DNA of 64,000 nucleotides from Cystobasidiomycetes sp. EMM_F5 (taxonomy: Eukaryota): NCBI GenBank assembly GCA_051047955.1, contig JBPGPT010000006.1, positions 62,001 through 126,000 on the forward strand, read 5' to 3'. How positions within the stretch are numbered: position 1 is the first letter of the stretch; each line of letters starts with the position of its first letter. The position numbers and the translations under genes are program-made. Under the pieces are notes generated by a model that was not told where the DNA came from, ran no database searches, and was given only the letters and a program-made list of their open reading frames with translations. This document shows, piece after piece, positions 2,090 to 56,165 of this stretch.

Positions 2090-3314
2090 ATGTACGGCGC
2101 CTCTCGCACGCTGGTCGCGCAGACAGCGTCCAAAGCAGCAGCAAAGCGGACGTTTACCGCTTCAGCTGCTCGGAACCATTCGACGGCCTCGTTTGGCTCG
2201 GGCTACGACAGTACCATTCCCAACATCAACATCAACAAGAACACTCGCGTCATATCGTCCGGCTTCACTGGAAAGACGGTGAGCTTTTCGAGCCCGGACT
2301 GCCTGAAAAAGGGCGGCCGACTATGGCTCCGAAGGGTCATTGGAAACGTGTTTCGCTAAAACAGCATGCGGTGCTATTGCGCATCTGCTTGTATGACAGG
2401 CGACGTTTCACTGCAAGGAAGCGATAGACTATGGCACGCTGATGGTCGGCGGAGTCTCGCCAAAGAAAGCTGGACAAACCCATCTCGGAGTCCCCGTCTA
2501 TTCGACCGTAGCCGAAGCGGTCAAGCATGAGAAACCGCACGCCAATGTCGTCTACGTCCCGCCGCCGTTTGCCGCTCAAGCCATTCTCGAGTCCATAGAA
2601 GCAGAAATCCCCTTGATTGTTGCCATTACCGAAGGTATTCCCCAGCAGGACGAAGTCCGTGTCGCGCAGGCACTCAAGAGCCAAACCAAATCACGTATGA
2701 TTGGTCCAAACTGTCCCGGTATCATGCGACCGGAAACTGGCGGAGGATGCAAGATTGGCATTATGCCCGCCCGGATCTTCTCACCCGGAAAGATTGGCGT
2801 AGTGTCCCGGTCAGGTACCCTCACCTACGAAGCGGTGGACCAGACTACCCGCGTTGGTCTCGGTCAGACTCTATGCGTCGGTATTGGCGGCGACCCGTTC
2901 CCAGGTACTCAACATATCGATGTCATCAAGCTCATGCTTGACGACCCTGAAACGCAAGGTATGCAAGCACGTTAACACATTCATATGGTATTCATACTGA
3001 TCTCGCTGCTGTCGTATACAGGTATTGTGATTATTGGCGAAATTGGCGGAACTATGGAGGAAGATGCTGCGGCATACCTAGAGCAACACAACAAAACACG
3101 CAGCAACCCCAAACCTGTAGTTGGATTTATTGCAGGACGTACAGCGCCTCCAGGAAGACGCATGGGACACGCCGGTGCCATCATTTCCGGCGGAAAGGGC
3201 AAGGCGGAGGATAAAGTAGCTGCACTAGAGCGGGCGGGTGCCATCGTGTGTGATTCTCCAGCAAAGATTGGACAGACAATGCTCAAGGCTATGCGGGAAG
3301 CAGGACTGGCATAG
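2090..3314 (+). CDS. LSC1: Succinyl-CoA ligase alpha subunit, mitochondrial
   Basis: Presequence-like N-terminus, [41 protein letters not shown]; introns near 2279-2399 and 2959-3021. Confidence 0.97.
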
Positions 3315-20645: not shown

Positions 20646-22136
20646 CTACGTCTTGCTGACTTTCTGCATCTCTAGATCATCCGAAAAAACCATGCTCAAG
20701 CTTGCGCGCCTACTGTCTCCACTTTTTGACAAGACTGCTAGCTATCGATTCTCGTCGGCTTCTCGTTCTCCGCTCCTTGTCAGGCTTGCTCGAGCTTCGA
20801 CTGCTAGAAGACTGTGTCTGAAGATGTCTGTTGGCTTTGCGAGCGTCACGGGCCGCGATAGCCTCCTGAAGCATATCCGACTAACGTCAGCGACCCCGTC
20901 TGATTTAATGCACAACGCACAGACCCACCAGCTGCTCCTTCTCCTGCAACGTGTATCTGCCATTCGGATTGGGATTGCCGATGGTCGGACCTTCAAGGAA
21001 GTACGGATGTCCGAGCATCGATTCGCACGAAGGTCTTTCGCTCGGCAGAAACGTGAGTAGCCGTTCCATCAAGTCGAGCGGAATCGACGGCCAGAGCGGA
21101 AAGAAGTCGTCATGGTTGCGTCGGATTATGCTGTCGAAATCAAAGTCTCGCATCTGCGCCTGCAAACGCAGAGCACGAGCAGTTGCATGTAAGCAGACAC
21201 GCGCATGATAACTCCAACCGCCAGAACGCACATATTGCTTTTGAGCATATCTTTGCGTTTCTGGATTGGGAACACCAATCAACCGGAAGATCGCACGCAG
21301 CATGTCTTGTTCTGTTCCTTCGCGGAAAACAGGGGAGCCATGCATCATCTCCGCTAGTATGACGCCGACGCTCCAGACATCTACTCCTCGGTCGTATGTA
21401 GTAGCGCCCATCAGCAGCAACGGGATTTTTTTCGGCAGTCAGTACACCCGAAGCTATAACATTCAGCAGAAGCACTCGCCTCTGGACAGCGCCACCACAT
21501 TGTCACCACGTTTCGATCCAGCTTTTCATCCGGAAGGCCAGTCACACGAGCAAGACCAAAGTCTGCGATTTTCAGCTCGCCCCGCTGCAGATTGATCAAC
21601 AGATTGGCGGGCTTGAGGTCTCGATGGAGTATATTCTCATTGTGCAGATACGAAACTCCTCGAAGCAGCTGATGCATAAAAGACCGGCAGACGGGCGGTG
21701 ATACGACACCGTTGTCTGTCATGTCTGGTCGCTGCATGTATGCGCTCAAATCGAGATCCATAAATTCCAGGACCAATTGCATCTTTAGGCCAAGGTGGAC
21801 GACATCATAAAGTCGTATGACTCTATCATTCTGCAATAATGGCATCGGTAAACGCATACAATGTCGACCTAATATGCCCCCTTACCTGCAAGGTCTTGAG
21901 AATGCTGATCTCTTTGACAATGTTGGGAGTCACTCCGATATTCTCATCGATTTCAATCTCCTTGACGGCAACCAGATCTCCAGTGGTCTCTTCCTGCCCC
22001 TAAGCCAATTCAAGTGTGTCCGCTCAGTCATCCAATTCTTCAACGTCAGACCCATGTTGGCAAGGCTTACTAGATAGACCTTTCCATACGTCCCTTCACC
22101 TATAGGCCTGATGATGCGGTAATTCACCAGCGTCAT
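20646..22136 (-). CDS. Divergent PHO85-like cyclin-dependent kinase, paralog A (possibly splice-defective)
   Basis: IGEGTYGKV, VAVKK, TPNIVKEISIL in place of PSTAIRE, HRDLKPANLL, DFGLAR; tail GPTIGNPNPNGRYTL nearly identical to the PHO85 gene at 26.3-27.8 kb. Confidence 0.8.
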
Positions 22137-22508: not shown

Positions 22509-23827
22509 TCATATGAGGACTGGCCGCGTATTGGAAACGCTTCTCCGCCTCGGATTGGAACCCGAAGGACCGCTCACGCTGTGTCGCCGGCTTCGACGGT
22601 GCTCGATCGCTCTCTATGTCCAGACAGACCGTATGGTTAGCTTACTCCTAACGCAAGCAATTCCAGCAAAAGATGACGCAGCTCACAATATGCTCCGCTT
22701 CTTGTGCAGTGTACAGCCCTTTGTGATCCGTGATGTATGTATGTTGTAGAGCCTGTGTACAAGTGATTCGTTTATGGGGCCGGAATCGCAAAAACTCCTT
22801 GAGTAATTCGAGAGCAAGCGGACTCCATAGCTTGAAAACTGTCTTTAATTCTTTAGGTGGTATTTTCGGAAAATTGTAGTCCTTCATCTTTTTCTGAACG
22901 GCGGAAATGAACCATGATTGCACAATAGTACAAAAGCCACTCAGCATCGCAACGCATCGCCGATAGGCCCTGACAAACTCACGTATGTTTTCCGTATCTC
23001 CTGACGGCGGCGCGAGCTAGGCGTACCGAACAAGCCAAAGACCTGGAGTAGCACCGCATCCCTGTCCCTGCCGTGGAATATCGGACGACCAAGCATCATT
23101 TCTCCAAAGATGCAGCCGATGCTCCATACGTCAATTTCGACTCCATACCAGCTGCTACCCATTATAATTTCAGGTGCCCGATAGTAAAGAGTCACTACTC
23201 TGTTGCTCTTGACTATGATTTCGTCTTCCAGTTCGGTTCCTTCGATGTTCAGGTCCACCCGTGCTAATCCAAAATCAGCAATCTTGAGAATGCCTCTCGA
23301 CGAGATCAGCAGGTTTGAAGGCTTAAGATCGCGATGCATCACGCCGTTCAAGTGAAGATGCTCCATTCCCAGCAGGAGTTGATGCATGAAGGATCTGCAG
23401 ATCTTTGGGTGCAAGACGCCCGCGTCCGCAAGGTCTGGGCGGCGAAGGTATGCTTCGAGATCCATATCGACAAACTCCAGTATTAAGCTGACTCTGGTAT
23501 CCTCGTGGATCACGTCGTAAAGCTTCACTATATTATTGTGCTGTATGCAGAAAAGTGGGTCTTAGGCATTGTTCATTCTTCAAAGTAGCAGATGCACGCT
23601 CACCTTCATCTCCTTCAGTATGCTAATTTCCTTGACCAACTCCTCGGTGAGACCGTCCGAGATTTTGATCTGTTTGATAGCGACCATATCGCTAGTGGGT
23701 ATATGTTGAGCCTGTTATTGCAGGTCAGTGCTTGTCTCTATCGACTCAAGTGTGGCTCACATACCAAGAAGACCTGTCCATAGGTTCCTTGACCGAGGCG
23801 TCTTATCACCTTGTAATCATCTGCCAT
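22509..23827 (-). CDS. Divergent CDK, paralog B
   Basis: MADDYKVIRRLGQGTYGQVFL|AQHIPTSDMVAIKQIKISDGLTEELVKEISILKEMK|..HRDLKPSNLL..DFGLAR..VVTLYYRAPE; intron positions shared with PHO85. Confidence 0.85.
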
Positions 23828-26347: not shown

Positions 26348-27751
26348 TCAATACGTTCCAGCTTGAGCCTGTTGACGCTGCTGTTGCTGCCTGTATCCAG
26401 CCTGCGCTTGAGCTTGAGCCTGTGCTTGGACTTGCACCTGTGCCTGTGCTTGTGCTTGCAATGCTTGTATCTGAGCACGTTCTTCGAGTGTGTATTGACC
26501 GTTAGGGTTTGGGTTGCCAACCGTCGGGCCGGACGTAAAGTAGGGGTGCATCAGAGCTTCTTCGCACGTCAAGCGGCGGGAGGGGTCGAATTGAAGTAGT
26601 TTCTCCAGCAGGTCCAGTGCTGTGTAAAAATGCAGGGGTCAGCAGGGTTCGTCTGTGCCTGCAGGCATCACATACCTAGTGGAGCGACCTTGGGAAACAT
26701 TGTTGCAAACGGAATCTTGGGCGTGCGAGGGAACGGCCTTAATTGAACTTCGGGCTGTGTAACGATGGCAAAAATAGACAGATTCGCTGCATCAGTCCTA
26801 CAGAGACTACATAACCCGGTACCAGCAACTCACACTCTCTTGTACAATCCTCCTCAGTGTCGCGTCATCTGGAGTACCGAGTATCCGGAGAATCTGGTTT
26901 AGTTGATCGTTGTTGTCTCTGCCTCTAAACAACGGCACGCCAGAGAGTACTTCCGCCATGATACAACCACACGACCAGACATCAATAGATGTAGAGTAGG
27001 TTCTTGAACCCATCAGGACATCCGGAGCACGATACCACAGAGTGACGACCTCGTTGCTAAACGTATTGACGGGTATTCCAAACGCTCTTGCAAGCCCGAA
27101 ATCTGCCAGTTTCAACTCTCCCCGTTTGTTGATGAGCAGGTTTTGAGGCTTCAAATCGCGATGCAGCACTCGGTTTTCGTGGCAGAATCCGGTGCCTTTC
27201 AGAAGTTGCCACATGAAAGACCGCACTACAGCTGGTTCCAGTACACCGCGGTCACCATGCGTGTCCATGTACTTCTTGAGATCGAGATCCATGTACTCAA
27301 AGACGAGGACTAGTTTGTTTTCGGTGTGGATCACGTCATAGAGTCGGACGATGTTGGGATGCTGTCGGGCGCGCGATAAACCAACCGTTACGGAGTATAG
27401 CAGTTGTATGATAGTGTGAGACGGAAGGCCGTCAGGTCTGTACTGTCCTAGCTTGGCTCGACATCCAGGTACACGCTACCCACCTTGAGCTCCTTCATCA
27501 GACTAATTTCGCGTATAGCTGTACTGGGCGTTCCTTCCTCCGAGTCGAGATGAATCTCCTTGAGTGCTACTATTTCGTTTGTCGTTCTCGACCGTCCCTG
27601 TGAATTCGTGTTTGAATATCGCGACGTTGTTTTGAGTCTCAGTCGTCGCCCAGCCGCCCCCTCTCCCTCGACCCACCTTGTGCACGGTAGCATACGTGCC
27701 CTCGCCCAGCTTCTCGAGAACAATGTACGGTGTCGCTGCCGAGGACGACAT
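26348..27751 (-). CDS. PHO85: Cyclin-dependent kinase Pho85
   Basis: [77 protein letters not shown]. Confidence 0.96.
26365..26462 (-). repeat. Coding Gln-Ala dipeptide and poly-Gln repeat in the Pho85 C-terminus
   Basis: [35 protein letters not shown], encoded by degenerate 6-nt units. Confidence 0.85.
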
Positions 27752-40707: not shown

Positions 40708-43700
40708 CTACAGATATAACGATGCACAGCTGTTGCAAGTGTCAAAATCGTAGTCAGCGGGGACGGGGGGAAATTGCGGAGATGCGACCCACAATACTAT
40801 ATCGCGCTTGATACACGCTTGGCACGCTTCCATCTTTTGATACAGAGCGGCATCTCCAATCACACGAGCAGTGTCTCGCACTTCTCGGCAGGTTTCGTCC
40901 AATCGCGTTATCGTCCGCACGATAGTTCCCTCTTGAACGTCTGTCAAGTGCGTGATTTCATCAAAGGGCTGCATAAAGAAGTGTGTCCATCAGCAGTCAG
41001 TACGATAGGTATTTTCTCTTGCTCGCTTCAACGTACCATTCCGCGAGCCCACTCGTATACCACTTCAGACAGGCCGAAATTTAACTGGTTGCTCTCAGGC
41101 CCGCTCTCAGCAACATCTGCTCGGCGCGCAACCTGAACGGCTGTCACGCGCTCAGCAATATCGCCGATTCTATCTCGTCCCTAGTAATGAAACAATTAGA
41201 GCTTGATGCTACGTACGAAGCTCTGGACGGACTTCTTTAAGCCGATCCGTAAAGACAGGCTCCGTCTCCGATCGGCGCTCCTGGAAGACAAAGCAGGACA
41301 GTAGGGCAACCACTTCTTCCGGCTCATAGCCAGCCAAGAAGTTTTCCAAGACGAGTTCAGTCAAGATGAGCTCGTGTCCCGTGTTGATTTCGCAGGCCAC
41401 TCGGCCTTTGAGAAGAACCGTGGATTTTTCATCGATGAACTGCAAGTCTTGTAACACGGCAATTCGCTGCTCGTAGTCTGGTAATAGGTCAAGATTCTGC
41501 TCCGATATAGCCATACGGAGCCTGGAAGTGCAATGACAATCAGCATTTGGTGAATCAATTAGGGTGTCGTAACATACGATGCGACCTTGTCTTCAAGCAA
41601 GCGGTACGCGTGCACTGCTTGATACTGCAAGAATGGCGTCAAGGAATCACGAGTATCCATGGTAGTTTGCGCACGGACCTGCTCATCGAAGTCGGCAATA
41701 TCGGTCAAGTCGAGCTTCTCTCGCTCCTTGACTAGCCGTTTACGCTCCTGCAGTAATTGCACCACCTCCATCGAGCGCACTTTTGACCAGTCCGCTTCGT
41801 GTTCGAGCGGGTTGTCCGATAATTGCGAGATTATGTCTGAAGCTCCAGCGACTGCCTCCTGCATCGCAGTATTGTTTGCATGATCCGATATGCGGTCAAA
41901 CTCGAACTGCAGAACAAGTCATGAGTGCTATGTTTGGACCGCAGCGACCCCGCTTACCTTCTGTGTCAGCCGAGTTACTATTGCTATACTAGTCATAGGG
42001 ACGATCGTCACCGCAGCGGAGAGCGAGCCGGTGTATGCAGACAGCGATGGTGGCCAAAGCGGCGGTCGACTGAGCCCTTGCTCGTGCGAAGCCGTACTAG
42101 CTGTAATGTACACAGCTACATGCCAAGCCTTTGTCTGGTCTATTCGGCCATCTGTTGTGACAAGGTTTGGAGCACCTCGAAGCAAGACGGCGACGGCTCC
42201 AGCGTATCGCTGATGGCAAGGCAATGAGTACGAAGACTGGGCTATTGAAGCCGACGCTATACATACTGCATCCGACAGGATGACTACGCGTCCTGGCGAA
42301 AAGACCTTGTTCGCGCCAGCAGAGCCGTACAGTAAGCTGAGGAGAGTCTCGTTAATCTGAACCAGTCTGCTGGTATAATCGTGGTATCTCCGGATCTCGA
42401 CAGAGACTTTGCCATCAGCTAGCTTTGGCAGAGCTTGAAGTTCCTTCTCGCTCTGCTCTACATTTAGCTTTGTGTCCCGTAGTTGGAGACGTGTTGACCT
42501 ACCTCCAAGACCCGTTTCTGTTGATCGGGCATGAGTCTTTGGGAAGCATTCTCTGAAAAGCTACGCTTGATCATCTCTTCCACTCGCAACGCCTCGACTC
42601 GCAAAAGGTTCAAGATCATCGTGTATGTCAGGCGGAACTGTGAAGAGAGCTTCGTCGGTTGTCCGAGGATCATTGTTTGAAGACTTGCAGTCTGATACGG
42701 ACGCGCGCCATCAGCTTGGACGTCTTCTTCCAGGTATACAAACTTACATCGGGTGGCTCGTTCTCGCCGCATACGATGATGACGACACCCGTGCTGTCAA
42801 GCCCTCTTCTACCTGCTCTCCCGGACATTTGCGTATACTCGCCGGCTAGTAGATCCCTGAATTGTCGGCCATCGTGCTTGCGTGTGCTCCCGAAGACAAC
42901 AGTACGCGCCGGCATGTTGACGCCCATGGCGAATGTCTCAGTAGCAAAGAGCACTTTGACGAGACCTTTGGAGAAGAGCAATTCCACCATCTATACTTTA
43001 GCATCAGTATCCACGGTTTTCTGGTTGTTTTTTCTGCGACAGACGAAGTGCACACCTCCTTGACAATTGGGAGAAGCCCACCATGATGCACGCCTATCCC
43101 GCGAGCTAACAGTTGGCGCATTTTGGCGATTTGAGGCAGCTTTTTGTCCGAACCTCCACGATTGTGTCTTAGCAAGTCAAGACTTTGACTTCGCGAGTCC
43201 ACTACTTACCTTTTAAGCGCGTTATACTGCGTTCAATCACGATATGAATTTCGCTCTTCTCATCCTTTCCGCAAAGGTCTTGATTTGGCATACTATCGGC
43301 ATTCTCCTCGCACCGCTTTTTCGAGAACGAAAATACGACTACAGGCAGCAGTTCCTTCTTCCGCAACAGACCAATCTGCGTAAGCGAGTATCAAATCCTT
43401 AGACAGACGAAATGTGGTATGTTGATCGTAAGAATGACTGACCAAGTGTACCCAAAGCTGTTTGTCCTGCGCTGCCGCTCCGCGCATTCCACTACGTACA
43501 GGTCCGAACGTACCGGCTCCTCGAACAGCAGCGTTCGCAACAGCAGGAGTACCTCGACCACGACCTGCAGTACCACCCCGCCCGCTTGGTCCGCCGCGTC
43601 CATTCTGCGCTACTTTGGCTGCGTTTGCTCCTTGGCGTACTAAAGGACCTAGGCCCGCCGCTTCACGTTCCTTCTCTTGTTTGCGTTTCAATGCCTCTGC

Positions 43701-45659
43701 AGCGTCTTTCCATCTGATTGAATGATTCAGCTACGAGTGTGATCAGTAGTAAGTGCCGTACCCCTGTCCATCGAACACGCCTCGGGAGTTGACAATCTTG
43801 AAGAGGTCTTTTCCAGCATACAGAAAGTGTTCCAGGGGGACTGGCCGTTTCGGAGTTGATATGACATAAATATCTTTCTTCTTCGTCCGGCTACAGAAAA
43901 GTAAGCTAGAGACTACCCTGCGCTTGAAAAGACTTACCCGACCCAGTCTGCGAATTCTTTCGTGTTCGGAACAGTAGCTGATAGGAGTATGATTCCCACA
44001 TGATCAGGAAGCATGATGATGACCTCTTCCCATACGACACCTCGCTGCATCACGTATCAGATAATATCATCGATACGCGTCATCGGCCTTCTCACCTCAA
44101 GATCGTTTACATAATGTACTTCATCAAATATCACCCACTCAACGTCCCTGATGAGATCGGCGCCCTTGTACAGCATGCTCCGCAAAATTTCAGTCTGACG
44201 GCATGCGTCAGAATTGATCTAGCGGAGGTGAGAACATGCCTTACAGTCATTATTAGACATCCAGCTTCTGGATTGATTTGTACGTCTCCAGTCAATATAC
44301 CAACATTCTCAGCGCCAAAGGTCTGTTTGAAGTCGCGATATTTCTGATTTGATAATGCTTTTATCGGAGAGGTGTAGATGGCCCTGAATATTAATCTGTG
44401 TGTCAGAGGCGACCTCAAAACGGCCGATGACTCCGTTTACCTTGTCATATGCCGTGACGCCAGAGCGATGGCGTATTCTGCAACGACAGTCTTTCCTGCA
44501 CTAGTATGGGCTGCGACAAAGACGCTGTCGCCGAGTTCTAGATGATAAACAGCTTCTTTTTGGAATGTATCTAGCTCGAAGGGGTACTACAGTATATCGG
44601 GGAATCAGCTAGCAGATCTCCAGCGATAAATTACAGCTTACCTACCTCTCTCGCCATGTCCGGTACTAGCTCTCGGAAGTTGACGAGTTCCTGATTGACG
44701 TCCACAACGTGCGCCCAGTCTCGTTTTGCCATTGCAGGCCGACGCCGAGCGGCCGGGGCTGCTGAGAGTTGTAATCGCTGCATATTTTGTAAGTCTACAG
44801 CGGCTGCAAGTATATTACTTCCTACGCACCTCTCTGGGCAAGAGATCTTCCACTTCCTTATCGAGCCCTTGTATAGCTTGCTTGCGGGTAGGACCTGCGA
44901 CAGACGAGGTAGACGCTAGCGGTCTGTAGATAGGTTCGACTCTAGCATGCTCTTCTGACTCCATTAGCGCCTGCTCCTCCGCCGTTAGATCAAAATCTAA
45001 GCCTCTCTCGAAGCCTGGAGGTATCGTTCGAATACCCCCTCGACCCAAACTGTAGCCAGACTCGACTCCGGATACGATCGTAGCGAAAGCATCTTCAGCA
45101 GTTGTCGATGATAGGCCAAGAGCCTGGTCGTCCAGCCCGCCGGGCGCAAATGGAAATTGACCGGTAATACCTCGGACAAAGCCTTTGGCATCGTACGCCT
45201 GCGGCTCTCTTGCTATGGATGTCGAAGTTGATGCAGTCAGATATTCGGTTGCCGTCTTTGTCGTCTGAAAGCATCGTCACCCCATGTGAGGTTGAATCCT
45301 CTCATCTCACGTATTACAACCTACCTCGCGATACCCAGTTATACGGCCTTCCAAGCCTACAGTTGTGAATTCCAAGCCAGCCGTAGGCCTCGCGGGTTCA
45401 GAATGATACAAGTCTTGCGGGTCCACGGTGTATGGCCATTGTCTAGAATCAATAATAAGCCAAGAAGATCACGGCAATGCACCACGATTGACGTTCCATA
45501 CATTTGCCATTCATTCAGCCATGACGGGGGAAGACGATATTTTGGAAGTACAAATCGGTCGGCCAGGGCAGCTCTGATGTCTTCTTCGGATCTTTCTGAG
45601 ACTCTGAGTGTGCTATCTTGGTCTTCCTGCAGAGTCATAACGACATTTTGAACATTCAT
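40708..45659 (-). CDS. SKI2: Ski2 DExH RNA helicase
   Basis: [78 protein letters not shown]-like [21 protein letters not shown]. Confidence 0.96.
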
Positions 45660-50053: not shown

Positions 50054-51079
50054 TCACTTGCAGGGCACTTCGTGACGTAGCGCAGACGTTCGCTCCGATA
50101 CGAATGCTCTTGAATGTCGACAACGTCTGTCGCGTAATGGTGAATGGATTTTATGGCATTGCATCATGGCATTCTCTAGCGAGAGCATGAGGTAATAGTG
50201 CGACTCTGTAATCATACGATCTCTATGTCGTGGTGGAGACCGCTGACGTCGCATTGATGATGGACGACTGACTTCCTCAAGGAATTGTGTATCTTGTTCA
50301 TCGTGTTGCTCGACGACCGGAAGCAAAATTTCATGGAAATGAGGGGTAGCTGGCGGAAGGGTCGCGAGTTGGACCATGCAGGCAGCGACCTCTTCCTGAA
50401 GCTCTGTATCAGGGCGTAGTGAAGTCGGAGGATCTTGCACGTCCGAGCTACTTCGGACTGACGGTCCGCCAGCCGACATCGACGAAGTGGACAGCAAGCG
50501 CAGCCATGATGAGCCAGACTCTTGGACGGGATGCTTGCAACGAATTGATTTCCGCACAGAAGTTCCCTTTGACCGCCTTTTCGGGACACTTGAGGATGGT
50601 GGCGTAATAACATGTACCTCTTGCGATTGAAGGGGGTCTTTCGCGGACTTGCTTCTGGGCAGCCGCTGGAAGCGATTGGTGCGGTCGCACTGCATGTCCG
50701 AAGCTGGTATATAGGAAAAATCATCTTCGCCATCGTCAAATAGCGCACGGCGGTGCAGGCCATTAAACGCCTGGTCGGAGCACGAGCCAGGTGACGAGGG
50801 CGGAGTCAGCAGTTCCTCATCACTTGATGTGCTTGATGAGGAACTGCAACTACTGGAAGGAGAAGTGTAGCCAGGATCCCAAGAATCGTCACCTTCCATG
50901 ATGGCGAATTGAACGCTTTCAGCGTCAAGTTTGCTGTTTGTACCGAACTGCACGCCGAGCAGTGATACAACGGGCGGCAGAGGGCGTGGTGAAGCGACCA
51001 TCCAGCGCTGCATGCGTGCAGGTATTTGGCATGGGAAGGGGAAAGAGCTGCCAGCTGCAGGTTTTGCTTCTTGCTGCAT
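50054..51079 (-). CDS. Hypothetical protein (intronless, Ser-rich)
   Basis: 341-aa ORF, mostly low complexity, with a more ordered C-terminal segment (YLMLSLENAMMQCHKIHSPLR). Confidence 0.6.
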   Translation of the reverse strand: MQQEAKPAAGSSFPFPCQIPARMQRWMVASPRPLPPVVSLLGVQFGTNSKLDAESVQFAIMEGDDSWDPGYTSPSSSCSSSSSTSSDEELLTPPSSPGSCSDQAFNGLHRRALFDDGEDDFSYIPASDMQCDRTNRFQRLPRSKSAKDPLQSQEVHVITPPSSSVPKRRSKGTSVRKSIRCKHPVQESGSSWLRLLSTSSMSAGGPSVRSSSDVQDPPTSLRPDTELQEEVAACMVQLATLPPATPHFHEILLPVVEQHDEQDTQFLEEVSRPSSMRRQRSPPRHRDRMITESHYYLMLSLENAMMQCHKIHSPLRDRRCRHSRAFVSERTSALRHEVPCK

Positions 51080-51643
51080 CTGCGGCTATCTCGCATGCAC
51101 TACGGTAACAATAAATGCAACGCCTCGGATGAAGAATACGCGAATCCGAGATCGTCGGATTTTATGGGTCCCGTTGCGAGCCGAGGGATTGAATTCTGAC
51201 AGCTAATGCAACGGTCCTTTGCATGAATTCAGAAATCATAAGGTGCAAATGAGAGTGAGAAGCAAAATGGAGATGAAGTGAACATGAACCGACGCTTGAC
51301 GCGCTTGTTCCATCGTTCATATTTCCGCGAAGCGAGATTAAGCGATGATGGGTCGGAAATGGCCGAACCGCGTGCTTTCAGCATGAGACGCGCGGATCCG
51401 GAGACAACTCAAGGCGATAAATAAACATCGTACGCGTTCACGTCCATATATCAAAGCACACAGACCTTAAAGAGCAGTGTTGTTCATCTGACTAGCCAAT
51501 ATGGGTCGCGAGTGCTTTACAGACCCTAGGCCTCTGAAAGCGACCGGACAAGACACCGGAAACAGACCGAAACGCCGGCTGCATCTTCAGAATTTACATG
51601 AGCAGTCATGAACGGCTTGGTCGTCCGGTCTGGGATCGGTTTC

Positions 51644-51768
51644 AGCGCGATAGCTCAGGTGTGTTGAGCTTTACTACTCAGCACAGCAGCGGACTAACAA
51701 TGCTCTGCAGTTGGAAGAGCGCGGGGCTCATAACCCCGAGGTCGTAGGATCGAGACTTACTCGCGCTA
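51644..51768 (+). tRNA. Initiator tRNA-Met (CAT) interrupted in the D-loop by a 52-nt spliceosomal-type insert (51659-51710)
   Basis: Exons 51644-51658 + 51711-51768 give 73 nt: AGCGCGA TA GCTC AGTTGGAA GAGC G CGGGG CTCATAA CCCCG AGGTC GTAGG ATCGAGA CTTAC TCGCGCT A. Has A1-U72, G-C run in the anticodon stem, and A54/A60 T-loop, all eukaryotic initiator hallmarks. Confidence 0.92.
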
Positions 51769-51780
51769 CTGGTCGCACCC

Positions 51781-51785
51781 TTTTT
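51781..51785 (+). terminator. Probable RNA polymerase III terminator (T5)
   Basis: TTTTT beginning 13 nt after the tRNA discriminator base. Confidence 0.65.
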
Positions 51786-52413
51786 GTCGCGTCTAGGAGA
51801 CAACCTTTCCTCTCTCGCAAGCGCCCGTAATTGTATCTTTTTACATGCACATGCGTGTGGGCACATAAGGGACCAGGTCAATGCATGTAGATTGATCTAC
51901 GGAGTACGTCCGGCGCATCCTTCCTCCTGGCCGTAATCGTTGTCTCTTCCCCGCGCCCGGAAGCTATTAGCTGTACGGACAACGCAATGTGTTGTATCGT
52001 GGCGTCTCCGCCATGATGTAGGGATGGACGGTAGTTTGTGGCCGAGTATTTATTCGATAGCTTCTCCACCTACTCATGAGCGTGTACAGTCTCCCCACGC
52101 TGCAGCAGGCTGTCAGCACCAATTGAAACACCCTTTAGTACTTATAAGATGTCATTAGACAAGATTAGGGTATCTTCCGTTGTTAGAAAGTCGGAATGAA
52201 ACTGTTAAGCAGTTCGAGCCAGTCATGTTGCGCGCGTTAGCCACAGTTAGGAGCAGTTCTCGGTTCGCAGAATCTGAGGGTATCGCAGCGATAGCACGGC
52301 TATGCATAAAGATGTACTGACTTCAACCGACAAGTGAGCTACAGGAGGGATCAATCGGAAGAGAAACGAAAAGCAAAAGGCCTATAACATATTACTGCGT
52401 CTATTAAAGTTGA

Positions 52414-55400
52414 TCAATCCACAATCTCCTCCTTAACGCGTGTCACTGCAGGATTTTGTGCTTTACGAGCCAATTGTGCTCTGTAGAGTTCGTTTGCTCT
52501 CGATACGAGGACCCTGATGACAGCCAGACGCTGTAGGCGCAACGCTTCCTGTTTTTTGTCTTCTTCAGAGGTAGCACGGACAGTCATGGCTTCCTCGTCC
52601 TGCTCTCCAATATCGCTGCCGGGAGGGGAGGTAACGACAGAAGGAGAGCGAGTGCGAAGTCGGGATCGCTTGTAGACTGCCTCTTCAGACATGTCATCCT
52701 CGCTTTCGCTTCGACTCTCGCAGTCTTCATAGTCATCTAGGCTGCTCATACGGAACGAACCGACACCCCGGGTAATGTGTGCCAACCGCTCGCCAGTCGA
52801 AGGCCTGCGGAGGACATCGTGCGAAGCAGTTGCTGAAGGGTACAGCTGCCTTGAACTCGTGTGCCTCTTGTGGGAAGAATGCGAAGCAGGCGAAGAAGAC
52901 CCATTTGACAGTGATGGAGAGGAGAAAGTATGATGCGAAGTCGGCAGGGGCTCTGATAGATCGGCGAGCATTGAGCGAAGCGAGGGTAAGCGCACAGAAG
53001 GCGGTGAATGGTGGTCGATAGGGGGTAATTTAACACTTTGCTGCCTCGCTGCAAGGGCACGACGTTGCTCGTCGTCATGCTCATCTTCTGCCGCTGAGGA
53101 CTCCACCTCGTGCTCATCCTCGCTCATCGCGCCAGGGCTTTCGCATCTCATTCGCTCCTCCTCGATTCCATCGTCCTCTACATCACGCTCCGGCTCGTCC
53201 TCGTGTACGGTAGACCGAATACTCGAGACGCCCTGCTTGGGACGGACAGGCTCAACCTCATCATGCAGGAGATGACGAAGAGAAGCAGGAGGAGGGGGAG
53301 CTCTCGAGAGCAGCTGAACATTCTGCATGTGCGGTTCTCGGTGGTAGTCTGGAGCAATGTGTGGTGTCGGGATAGCTCGCGTGTGTTGAAGATAATCAAA
53401 CGATACGGGAGCGACACCAGACCTGTTCGGGTATGACGACCGACCTGCTTGTGCGTGGTGCTGCTGCTGGTGCGGTTGCTGTTGAGCAGGTCGAGGAGCA
53501 TGCGAAGGTAGAGGCTTGATGGGTTTGCTACCCTGCAGATGCGACAATGAAGGGTACATTCCCGCCAATGATGCGGCCAAGTCCGACTTCGCATCATGAT
53601 GTATTGAATCATACGAGAAACTATTTGCTGTAGGTGTGTCGAGTGACGAGGGTGGCAGTTGTGTCCAGTCCTGCAAGGAGGGTGTATGATTTTGATGCTT
53701 GTCATGCGGCATATGCGGCGAGTCATACGGTTGCCCAAACGAAAACAGCAGAGAATTGATATCGTCTATATCAGACTTGGAAATATCCAACGTCCCTTCA
53801 AATGGACTCGTTACACTGCCCGAGTTTGACCGCGGACTGGCATGCGAGTTTGAGGAAGACGAAGAAGATTCATCGGATGGAGAAAGGGTTGCAGAAATGC
53901 CAAGTGGCGGTACTGAGCCGTACGATCCACTGACATTCGATAGAGTATCTGCTGTATTGTCGCCGAAAAGATACGTTGACAGCGAATCGAGCCGATGATC
54001 GACTAAATCGTACGCCGAGGAAACCCGATTAGTACCGCCTCACAAACCCCAATTGCGGACCACTAAAACTCACAAGGCGCCGGATCACTGCTATCAAATC
54101 TCTTCTTCTTGAGCTCGTTCAACAATGCATCCGCTTCTTCTGTAAAGCTCCTCTTTGTCTTGCCCAGTACCGAACCTGTCCTTTCAGCAGGCGAGGCCGA
54201 AGACTGTTGTTGATAGTTTGACGAGGAAGACATGACCGAGGCCGACTGTGAATGAGGCGACAGACGATGCGTCTGCTGTTGCTGCTGCGATTGCTGGTAC
54301 TCATTTCCTAAGTACTGAGGTTGGCCGTTGCCATTCATGTACCGCGCATGCTGCGGCATGGGCGAAGTCGAGTGTTGGTGATAATAACTCGACGACGAAG
54401 CTGGAGATGCGCCTGCAGAAGACGGTGCCGCAGAGTCGTAGCGATGCGCATTAGGGTGCTGAAGGTGATTGACGACTGGCTTGTTCTCTACTCCTCCTAA
54501 ATCATGCAGACTTGGATACAAACCGCCGTTTGTTGATGGTTGGTGTTGTTGGGTAGCCATGACGGAGGGAGACTTTGAGTAATCTGGATGGTTGGACATT
54601 GGCGATGGACCAAGATGTGATGGTTGAGCAGCTTGATAGGGATTCTTCATCTGCTGACCGTAGCTCCCGTGGGGAAAGATGCTAGGGACGAGGACGTTTT
54701 GGTGTTGTGGCTGCAGCTGCTGATGCATTGCAGCTAAAACAGAAGGATGCTGTTGTCCAGCCTGATAGGATAGTTGAGGGGCACCGGGCATAGCAGCTGG
54801 CATTCCCATCAGCTGAGCTGCCACTGCATTCAGACGCTGTTGCTGAATCAGTAATTCTGCCAGTCCAGCTTGCTGCTCTGGCATGATGGGATACCCGTAT
54901 GGATACGGTAACATGTATGGGTTGAGGTATCCCTGCATCCCAGCTTGCGCTGCTGCTGCAACGGCAAGAGCGGCTGTAGGGTCTACGCCTAGTTGATTTG
55001 GCAAGACATGGGGTTGATGCTGCTGCTGATGCTGTTGCGCTTGTTGGTGGTGTGACTGCATCTGCGTAGCGGCTATAGCGTGCTGTAGTGAGTGATGCTG
55101 CCCGATAGCTGCATGATCGGCAGTAGGATGTGTCGAGGCATTGGTCGCAGTAGACTGCTTGGACGTCGGTACACCACTCGATGGGGCTACCGTAATTGCC
55201 TTGGACTGCTTGTGCCTCACGTGATGCTCTTCAGTGTGAATCTTTTCGTGCTTTCGCAAATCTTGCGGTCGCTTGAAGGCCTTGGCGCACGTCTTGAGAG
55301 GTCAAAAGTCGTCAGCTAGTGCGTCGCTGAATGATGGACAAACGCGCTCACCTCGCATGCATGTGGTTTGAGCGGTGTGTGGACTGCAGATACGTACACA

Positions 55401-55912
55401 ATGTCAGCTTTCTGTCGAAACTGTCATCCTCGGATGCGGATGTCTCGGGACTGGGCGGGATGGCGTGGGAGGAGAAACGAGGGTAGTGCGAGTGATGGAT
55501 GCCTATTGTACACTGTATGCGCTGTATCCGCTGTACATGTGTGCTTGAATGAGCTCCAAAGCTGCCCAATCTTCAGACCCGGAATGGGCTTGGCGGATCC
55601 AAACCAAGTGCAAGATGCAGGATTTCGAAGGGTATTACGACATGCCATGTCCGAGTGCATCCACACCGTCCAATCAATTCTTGCCCACTCACCCCTCATA
55701 TGGCTCGTTATGTGGTCCCTCTTTGCGCAGGTCACCGCACACCCCCTCCATTGGCAGGTCAGGTTGAGGTTGTTTGTGCTCTTCCTGCCCACATGGGCGT
55801 CGCATAAATGTCGGAAAAGGTCCTCTGGGACGTCGTAGCTGTCGCTGCATCCCTCCCATTGGCACACGAGCCCGGCGGGCGCTGGCTTCCTTTCGTCAGC
55901 GTCGTCGGGCAT
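52414..55912 (-). CDS. RIM101: pH-response C2H2 transcription factor PacC/Rim101
   Basis: [70 protein letters not shown]; two YPSL motifs; acidic C-terminal region. Confidence 0.94.
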
Positions 55913-56165
55913 CCTGAGTGAGACTTGGTTGAATATTGTGTCTTGTAATGGATATATTGTTGTATATTGTGTTGTGTCTTTGTACTGCCCTTGTCTTCTC
56001 GCCCTGTCGCCCTCTTCCCAACTTGTGCCTCTCCCTTCTCTCTGTCAGAGCTGCTGACCCTCTCTGCCTTGGCATTTCTGCGAGCCAAGCGATCCAGCGA
56101 TTCCGGCTGGGCGATGTGGCAACTGATTATGTAAGCCTTGATTATGTAATACACCACGACTACGA

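Follow-up and report, generated by a model that had tools for sequence, protein, structure and literature searches.

The introns of tRNA genes and those of mRNA genes are treated as two separate worlds: the former, canonically placed at position 37/38, are removed by the SEN endonuclease and a ligase, and the latter are removed by the spliceosome. In some eukaryotes, D-arm introns are cut by protein enzymes, as described in passages of PMC4090602 and PMC3728597. The nuclear tRNA introns of Cyanidioschyzon merolae and those of nucleomorphs, as far as these excerpts describe them, split eukaryotic tRNAs outside 37/38, the D-arm included, and are either dependent on a bulge-helix-bulge (BHB) motif or very short. 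Spliceosomal introns in small non-coding RNAs are treated in PMC5855946, excerpts of which report that the U6 genes of fungi hold as many as four introns, with canonical signals, and cite Erythrobasidium (Rhodotorula) hasegawianum for mRNA-type introns in its U1, U2, U5 and U6 genes. The non-coding intron hosts named in those excerpts are U6, U2, U5, U1 and rRNA, and tRNA is not among them. Our search of the full-text literature, with subscription journals outside its reach, found no description of a tRNA gene with a spliceosomal intron.

We analyzed a plus-strand locus in a 64-kb stretch of DNA, the whole of which is referred to here as the window. Exon 1 (51644–51658; 15 nt, tRNA positions 1–15) contains the 5′ acceptor strand, U8 and A9, the 5′ D-stem strand GCTC, and A14 and G15, and ends in CAG. 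It is followed by a 52-nt insert with the anatomy of a spliceosomal intron (51659–51710), which lies in the D-loop between tRNA positions 15 and 16. Exon 2 (51711–51768; 58 nt, positions 16–73) is supported by ARAGORN and by a partial Rfam tRNA match, and comprises the rest of the D-loop (U17, A20), the 3′ D-stem strand, the anticodon arm with its GGG:CCC pairs and the anticodon CAT at 51729–51731, the T-arm (A54, G59, A60), the 3′ acceptor strand and the discriminator A73. The gene encodes no CCA. Downstream (51769–51785), a 12-nt trailer leads to a T5 tract at 51781–51785 that resembles a Pol III terminator.

The segment 51659–51710 was excised by script, and the product was submitted to ARAGORN. 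The results showed a 73-nt cloverleaf called as a single tRNA-Met(CAT), with complete pairing in the acceptor (7/7), D (4/4), anticodon (5/5) and T (5/5) stems, one pair being G-U. None of the 21 stem pairs was broken, and the A and B boxes, T5 tract and three intron signals were likewise intact. Because CAG precedes both boundaries, four cut placements (shifts of 0 to −3 nt) yield the identical product, and just one of them gives GT-AG. These results bear out the sequence-only reading, an earlier interpretation of this DNA, which had located the exon 1 CAG, the GTGTGT start, ACTAAC at 51693–51698 and the TGCAG end of the insert, all correctly, and had claimed that excision leaves a 73-nt initiator tRNA with four paired stems in front of a T5 tract. 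The locus lies between genes, and about 560 nt and about 630 nt separate it from the reading frames on either side. The neighbors are an open frame at 50057–51085 and a C2H2 zinc-finger gene at 52417–56044 (Pfam Zap1_zf1), both on the minus strand, the stop of the latter facing the locus.

Eukaryotic initiators are defined by A1:U72 and by three G:C pairs in the anticodon stem. The spliced form carried a CAU anticodon in a standard cloverleaf, A1:U72, and three consecutive G:C pairs (G29–31:C39–41) at the bottom of the anticodon stem, together with A20, A54, A58, A60 and A73, all of which it shares with eukaryotic cytoplasmic initiator tRNA-Met. It differs from the latter at the D-stem pair 12:23, which is U:A, a difference that we presume from comparison with the yeast and Neurospora initiators. 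According to the passages of PMC10275265 on the eukaryotic initiator pattern, these tRNAs have A20, A54 and A60, lack N17, and form a substructure of A20, G57, A59 and A60. The present tRNA departs from that pattern at two sites: position 17 is occupied by U17, the D-loop being 8 nt long after removal of the insert, and G59 replaces A59, giving a T-loop of A54 T C G A G59 A60. Neither U17 nor G59 had been mentioned in the sequence-only reading. They may be a habit of the lineage, or they could mark the first signs of decay. With these two deviations, the claim that the exons form an initiator-type tRNA-Met holds.

We then compared the locus with the internal promoter elements of type-2 Pol III genes, using the consensus sequences given in the relevant part of PMC7954030. 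The A-box-like element TAGCTCAGGTG (51651–51661, plus strand) spans the boundary between exon 1 and the insert and fits TRGYNNARNNG in the unspliced DNA, since the insert starts with GTG; the sequence-only reading had not pointed this out. The B-box-like element GGATCGAGACT (51747–51757, plus strand) agrees with RGTTCRANTCC at 7 of the 10 specified positions, and two of its three mismatches are the initiator hallmarks A54 and A60. The locus therefore has the layout of a type-2 gene, its A and B boxes lying inside it and a T run after it. The gap between the boxes is 85 nt, which we take to be within the tolerated range. No T4 run occurs in the insert; this carries little weight, because 14 of 16 ordinary introns from the same window (described below) also lack one. 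B-box-like words occurred 7 times in the window, against 8.9 expected.

To place the insert among the introns of its host, we assembled a reference set of 16 homology-supported introns, 15 from a helicase gene and one from a succinyl-CoA ligase alpha gene. Exon blocks were defined by tblastn of a full-length Ski2-like helicase (P0210) and of the Mixia succinyl-CoA ligase alpha (P0003) against the window, and introns were accepted as GT-AG pairs that restored the frame without stop codons. A protein search with the arch-domain exon of the helicase found nothing, and the helicase representative was then obtained with the Helicase_C exon. We set aside three ambiguous junctions (the first of the ligase gene, that of the helicase gene near 41160–41232, and the stretch 44720–44998), and one retained intron (42456–42502) has an alternative acceptor 3 nt away. 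An enumeration of introns bridging open reading frames was too noisy; it gave candidates only and was superseded by the tblastn-anchored set.

The 5′ splice-site consensus is CAG/GTRAGT. The insert begins with GTGTGT (51659–51664) after the exonic CAG and fits this consensus at 8 of 9 positions. Its branch motif ACTAAC (51693–51698) has the candidate branch A at 51697, leaving 13 nt to the end of the insert, and the CAG at 51708–51710, preceded by the pyrimidine-rich TGCTCTG, supplies the first AG past the branch A. The reference introns measured 47–68 nt (median 56 nt), compared with 52 nt for the insert. Their 5′ ends were GTRNGY-like, with GTGTGC seen once. A CTRAY branch motif was present in 10/16, in every case as CTGAY, a looser YTNAY in 5, and none was found in the remaining one; the distance from branch A to 3′ end was 5–29 nt in the 15 introns with a motif, and 12/16 ended in YAG. 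The insert thus shows the extended GT 5′ splice site, the CTRAY motif followed by the first AG, and the host-typical length of a U2-type intron, with splice signals at least as strong as those of any of the 16. CTAAC occurred in 0/16 reference introns, the local habit being CTGAY. The claim that the insert matches the pre-mRNA introns of the window in size and signals is therefore confirmed, against introns that rest on protein homology.

We also counted how often such a combination of signals occurs in 52-mers, requiring GT at the start, G/T at +5/+6, YAG at the end, and CTRAY 8–40 nt from the end. The full set was present in 7 of 127,896 52-mers (both strands of the window, real introns included), of which 2 had CTAAC. 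After a fourfold correction for the equivalent placements, the chance estimate was about 2 in 10,000. Judged by its sequence, the insert is very probably a spliceosomal-type intron and not random filler.

The predicted fold of the insert added a feature that the sequence-only reading did not contain. Both the MFE and centroid folds contained a hairpin at 51660–51685 (plus strand), with a 9-bp stem (51660–51668 paired with 51677–51685) and an 8-nt loop, covering positions +2 to +10 of the 5′ splice site. The MFE of the insert was −17.3 kcal/mol, compared with −3.2 to −12.4 kcal/mol in the 16 reference introns, so that the insert is predicted to be more stable than all of them; 1.4% of 500 shuffled sequences folded as stably. 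The predicted hairpin may hinder U1 binding, or it may compact the precursor. Degenerate echoes of the exon motif GCTCAG were present within the insert, namely ACTCAG at 51677–51682 and GCTCTGCAG at 51702–51710, and hint that the insert arose through local duplication or repair. With the second of these echoes, the insert repeats at 51702–51710 the GCTC..CAG motif of exon 1, a possible trace of where the insert came from. Apart from chance matches of 8–19 nt, no other copy of the insert and its flanks was found in the 64-kb window. As regards a repeated, introner-like intron family, the window contained no further copy of the insert above 12 nt in length.

We next examined how tRNA-detection programs treat the locus. 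ARAGORN without the intron option called no tRNA in the untouched 64-kb window, Rfam at gathering thresholds gave no match there, and no other tRNAs were found in the window. A permissive Rfam scan of the unspliced DNA returned a partial tRNA match at 51702–51760 with 25.3 bits, compared with the gathering score of 29. Because the insert repeats GCTC..CAG, the Rfam model builds its D-arm from the insert and exon 2, with the GCTC near the 3′ end of the insert standing in for a D-stem strand. With the intron option, ARAGORN called the unspliced DNA a tRNA-Arg(tcg) with a 49-nt intron in the anticodon loop. We rejected this call as an artefact, since its D-stem would have only 3 bp, with mismatches, and the perfect Met cloverleaf is disregarded. 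The earlier claim that standard scans overlook such a gene is thus correct, because ARAGORN and Rfam both fail on the untouched DNA.

Several explanations that dispense with a spliceosome-dependent Pol III tRNA were weighed against these data. The insert might be a non-canonical tRNA intron, cut out by the tRNA splicing endonuclease or by some other protein enzyme, with the GT, branch and AG signals incidental, and the protein-cut D-arm introns of some eukaryotes lend this idea a precedent. We searched for a BHB at the four equivalent cuts, requiring each 3-nt bulge to be cut after its second base and the central helix to have 4 bp. No BHB was present at any of these placements, the central helix having 0, 1, 1 and 2 of its 4 pairs, and other BHB-like pairings in the precursor would not yield the tRNA. 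Endonuclease splicing is therefore very unlikely, and the position of the insert (15/16, compared with the canonical 37/38) and a full signal set improbable by chance weigh against it as well. A self-splicing group I or II intron was rejected: the insert has only 52 nt, and a permissive Rfam scan of 51500–51900 gave no intron family. It is similarly improbable that the tRNA-like unit belongs to a longer Pol II transcript, from which it would be spliced and then freed by RNase P and RNase Z, in the way that some long RNAs shed a tRNA-like end. In Pol II transcripts the cap normally aids splicing of the first intron, and the intergenic room of about 560 and 630 nt leaves space for an unannotated plus-strand transcript. 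However, the A box, B box and T5 tract form a self-contained Pol III unit, and no plus-strand gene is evident nearby. That the locus is neither a tRNA gene nor an intron, with both resemblances due to chance, we regard as scarcely credible: a single copy is seen, without comparative support, but a full cloverleaf with initiator marks and a signal set found in so few 52-mers coincide at a single site that is followed by a T5 tract.

The more serious question is whether the gene works or has been disabled. We tentatively favor, at a level of confidence only just short of even, the view that this is a nuclear gene of the Pol III type that encodes an initiator-like tRNA-Met and is split by a working 52-nt U2-type (GT-AG) spliceosomal intron. 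Transcription by Pol III with TFIIIC would run across the insert as far as the T5 tract, as suggested by an A box that is intact before splicing, by the B box, and by an insert free of T4 runs. The spliceosome would recognize CAG/GUGUGU, ACUAAC with A51697 as the branch, and the AG that comes first after it, and would release the insert as a lariat, on the model of the U6 snRNA that fission yeast and Erythrobasidium make with Pol III and splice. End-trimming and CCA addition would then give the 73-nt tRNA. It is also quite possible, though we rate it somewhat below an even chance, that a spliceosomal-type intron struck one of several initiator genes, whether by reverse splicing together with reverse transcription, by transposition of an intron, or as filler at a DNA break, and that the Pol III transcript is spliced poorly or not at all; the locus would then be a young pseudogene with exons that have not yet decayed. 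U17 and G59, which lie outside the initiator pattern as given in the part of PMC10275265 cited above, could mark such a decaying copy, and the predicted 9-bp hairpin buries the 5′ splice site and could hinder U1 binding. The ACTAAC branch departs from the local CTGAY habit, and other, intronless initiator genes may supply the cell. The CAG at both ends and the GCTCAG echoes inside fit an insertion or duplication, and the inner GCTC can be taken by the Rfam tRNA model as a D-stem strand. Against a disabled copy, every stem pair, both promoter boxes, the T5 tract and the three intron signals are preserved, the splice signals at least equal those of any of the 16 working introns, and Pol III-made U6 tolerates spliceosomal introns in the same subphylum, according to the excerpts on Erythrobasidium. 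The proposal of the sequence-only reading, that a spliceosomal intron interrupts an initiator tRNA, was thus upheld as to the tRNA and intron anatomy, to which the 15/16 position, the lack of a BHB and the failure of the scans add support; its functional part, maturation through the spliceosome, is retained here in the tentative form given above.

Sequencing reads and metagenomes were also searched. No RNA run was among those listed for this sequence. The four best sequencing runs held 5–10% of the sampled words, and their contigs fell only on 50161–51289 and 52357–52712, with no joints. A scan of metagenomes with a 26-nt stretch of exon 2 returned five loci (L001–L005), all of them tRNA arrays of 41–44% G+C. 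They were rejected as relatives of the present locus: their D-arms are uninterrupted, their T-arms are different, and they are unrelated to the fungus.

Compared with the intron-bearing U6 of fission yeast and Rhodotorula hasegawae (the former name of Erythrobasidium hasegawianum, which belongs to the same subphylum, Pucciniomycotina) and with the fungal U1, U2, U5 and U3 genes, as far as the cited excerpts describe them, the locus is alike in having a short GT-AG intron with canonical signals in a small structured RNA gene. The likeness to U6 goes further, U6 being a Pol III transcript that ends at a T run and is found with an intron in the same subphylum. In contrast to the snRNAs, a tRNA lies outside the spliceosome, and for this one splicing is predicted from sequence. 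The explanation of snRNA introns by reverse splicing at the active site, given in the same excerpts of PMC5855946, is not directly applicable, because a tRNA is not part of the spliceosome. With canonical 37/38 introns the insert shares its nature as an intervening sequence that has to be removed from a Pol III tRNA transcript, but it sits at 15/16, allows no geometry of anticodon–intron pairing, and carries mRNA-type signals. Unlike the Cyanidioschyzon merolae and nucleomorph introns as described in the excerpts, it has no BHB, is of ordinary intron length, and has the full set of GT, ACTAAC and CAG.

It is thus conceivable, though we put it at less than an even prospect, that a Pol III initiator-tRNA precursor must pass through the spliceosome, which would be the first mRNA-type-spliced tRNA of any organism. 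A tRNA that needs the spliceosome would break the division between the two worlds of introns. If it is real, spliceosomal introns can colonize and persist in tRNA genes, and their hosts extend beyond the RNAs in or near the spliceosome, which bears on whether new introns arise because the target RNA is abundant or because it lies close to the active site. How much start-codon tRNA the cell has would depend on its capacity for splicing. tRNAscan-type annotation would not see such genes, of which the lineage may contain more, and the present one would reveal a gap in tRNA annotation, since ARAGORN and Rfam both miss it. If the copy is dead, it would still be a clean, datable intron-like insertion in a Pol III gene.

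The genes elsewhere in the window provided information on the host. The succinyl-CoA ligase alpha gene lies at 2090–3311 on the plus strand. The best named matches of its exon were Mixia osmundae (78%) and Microbotryomycetes (72–73%), and the best public match reached 94%; the host is therefore a Pucciniomycotina basidiomycete without close annotated relatives in the protein collection. The Ski2-like DExH helicase gene (40770–45460, minus strand) has at least 15 introns of 47–68 nt, which shows how dense introns are in this genome. Four of these introns are in frame and are read through by tblastn, with stop codons crossed in three. Three adjacent genes on the minus strand (20908–21881, 22944–23561 and 26810–27475) encode similar protein-kinase domains and seem to be a family arranged in tandem. 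On inspection they resemble CDK/Pho85 kinases, and Pfam Pkinase was tested for one of the three.

The metagenomic arrays L001–L005, on contigs of 9–64 kb, showed an arrangement of their own. They include initiator-like tRNAs with a GGATCGAAACC T-loop beside a Met-like tRNA that shares the 26 nt with exon 2. Their low G+C content and closely spaced tRNA genes resemble viral or phage tRNA arrays.
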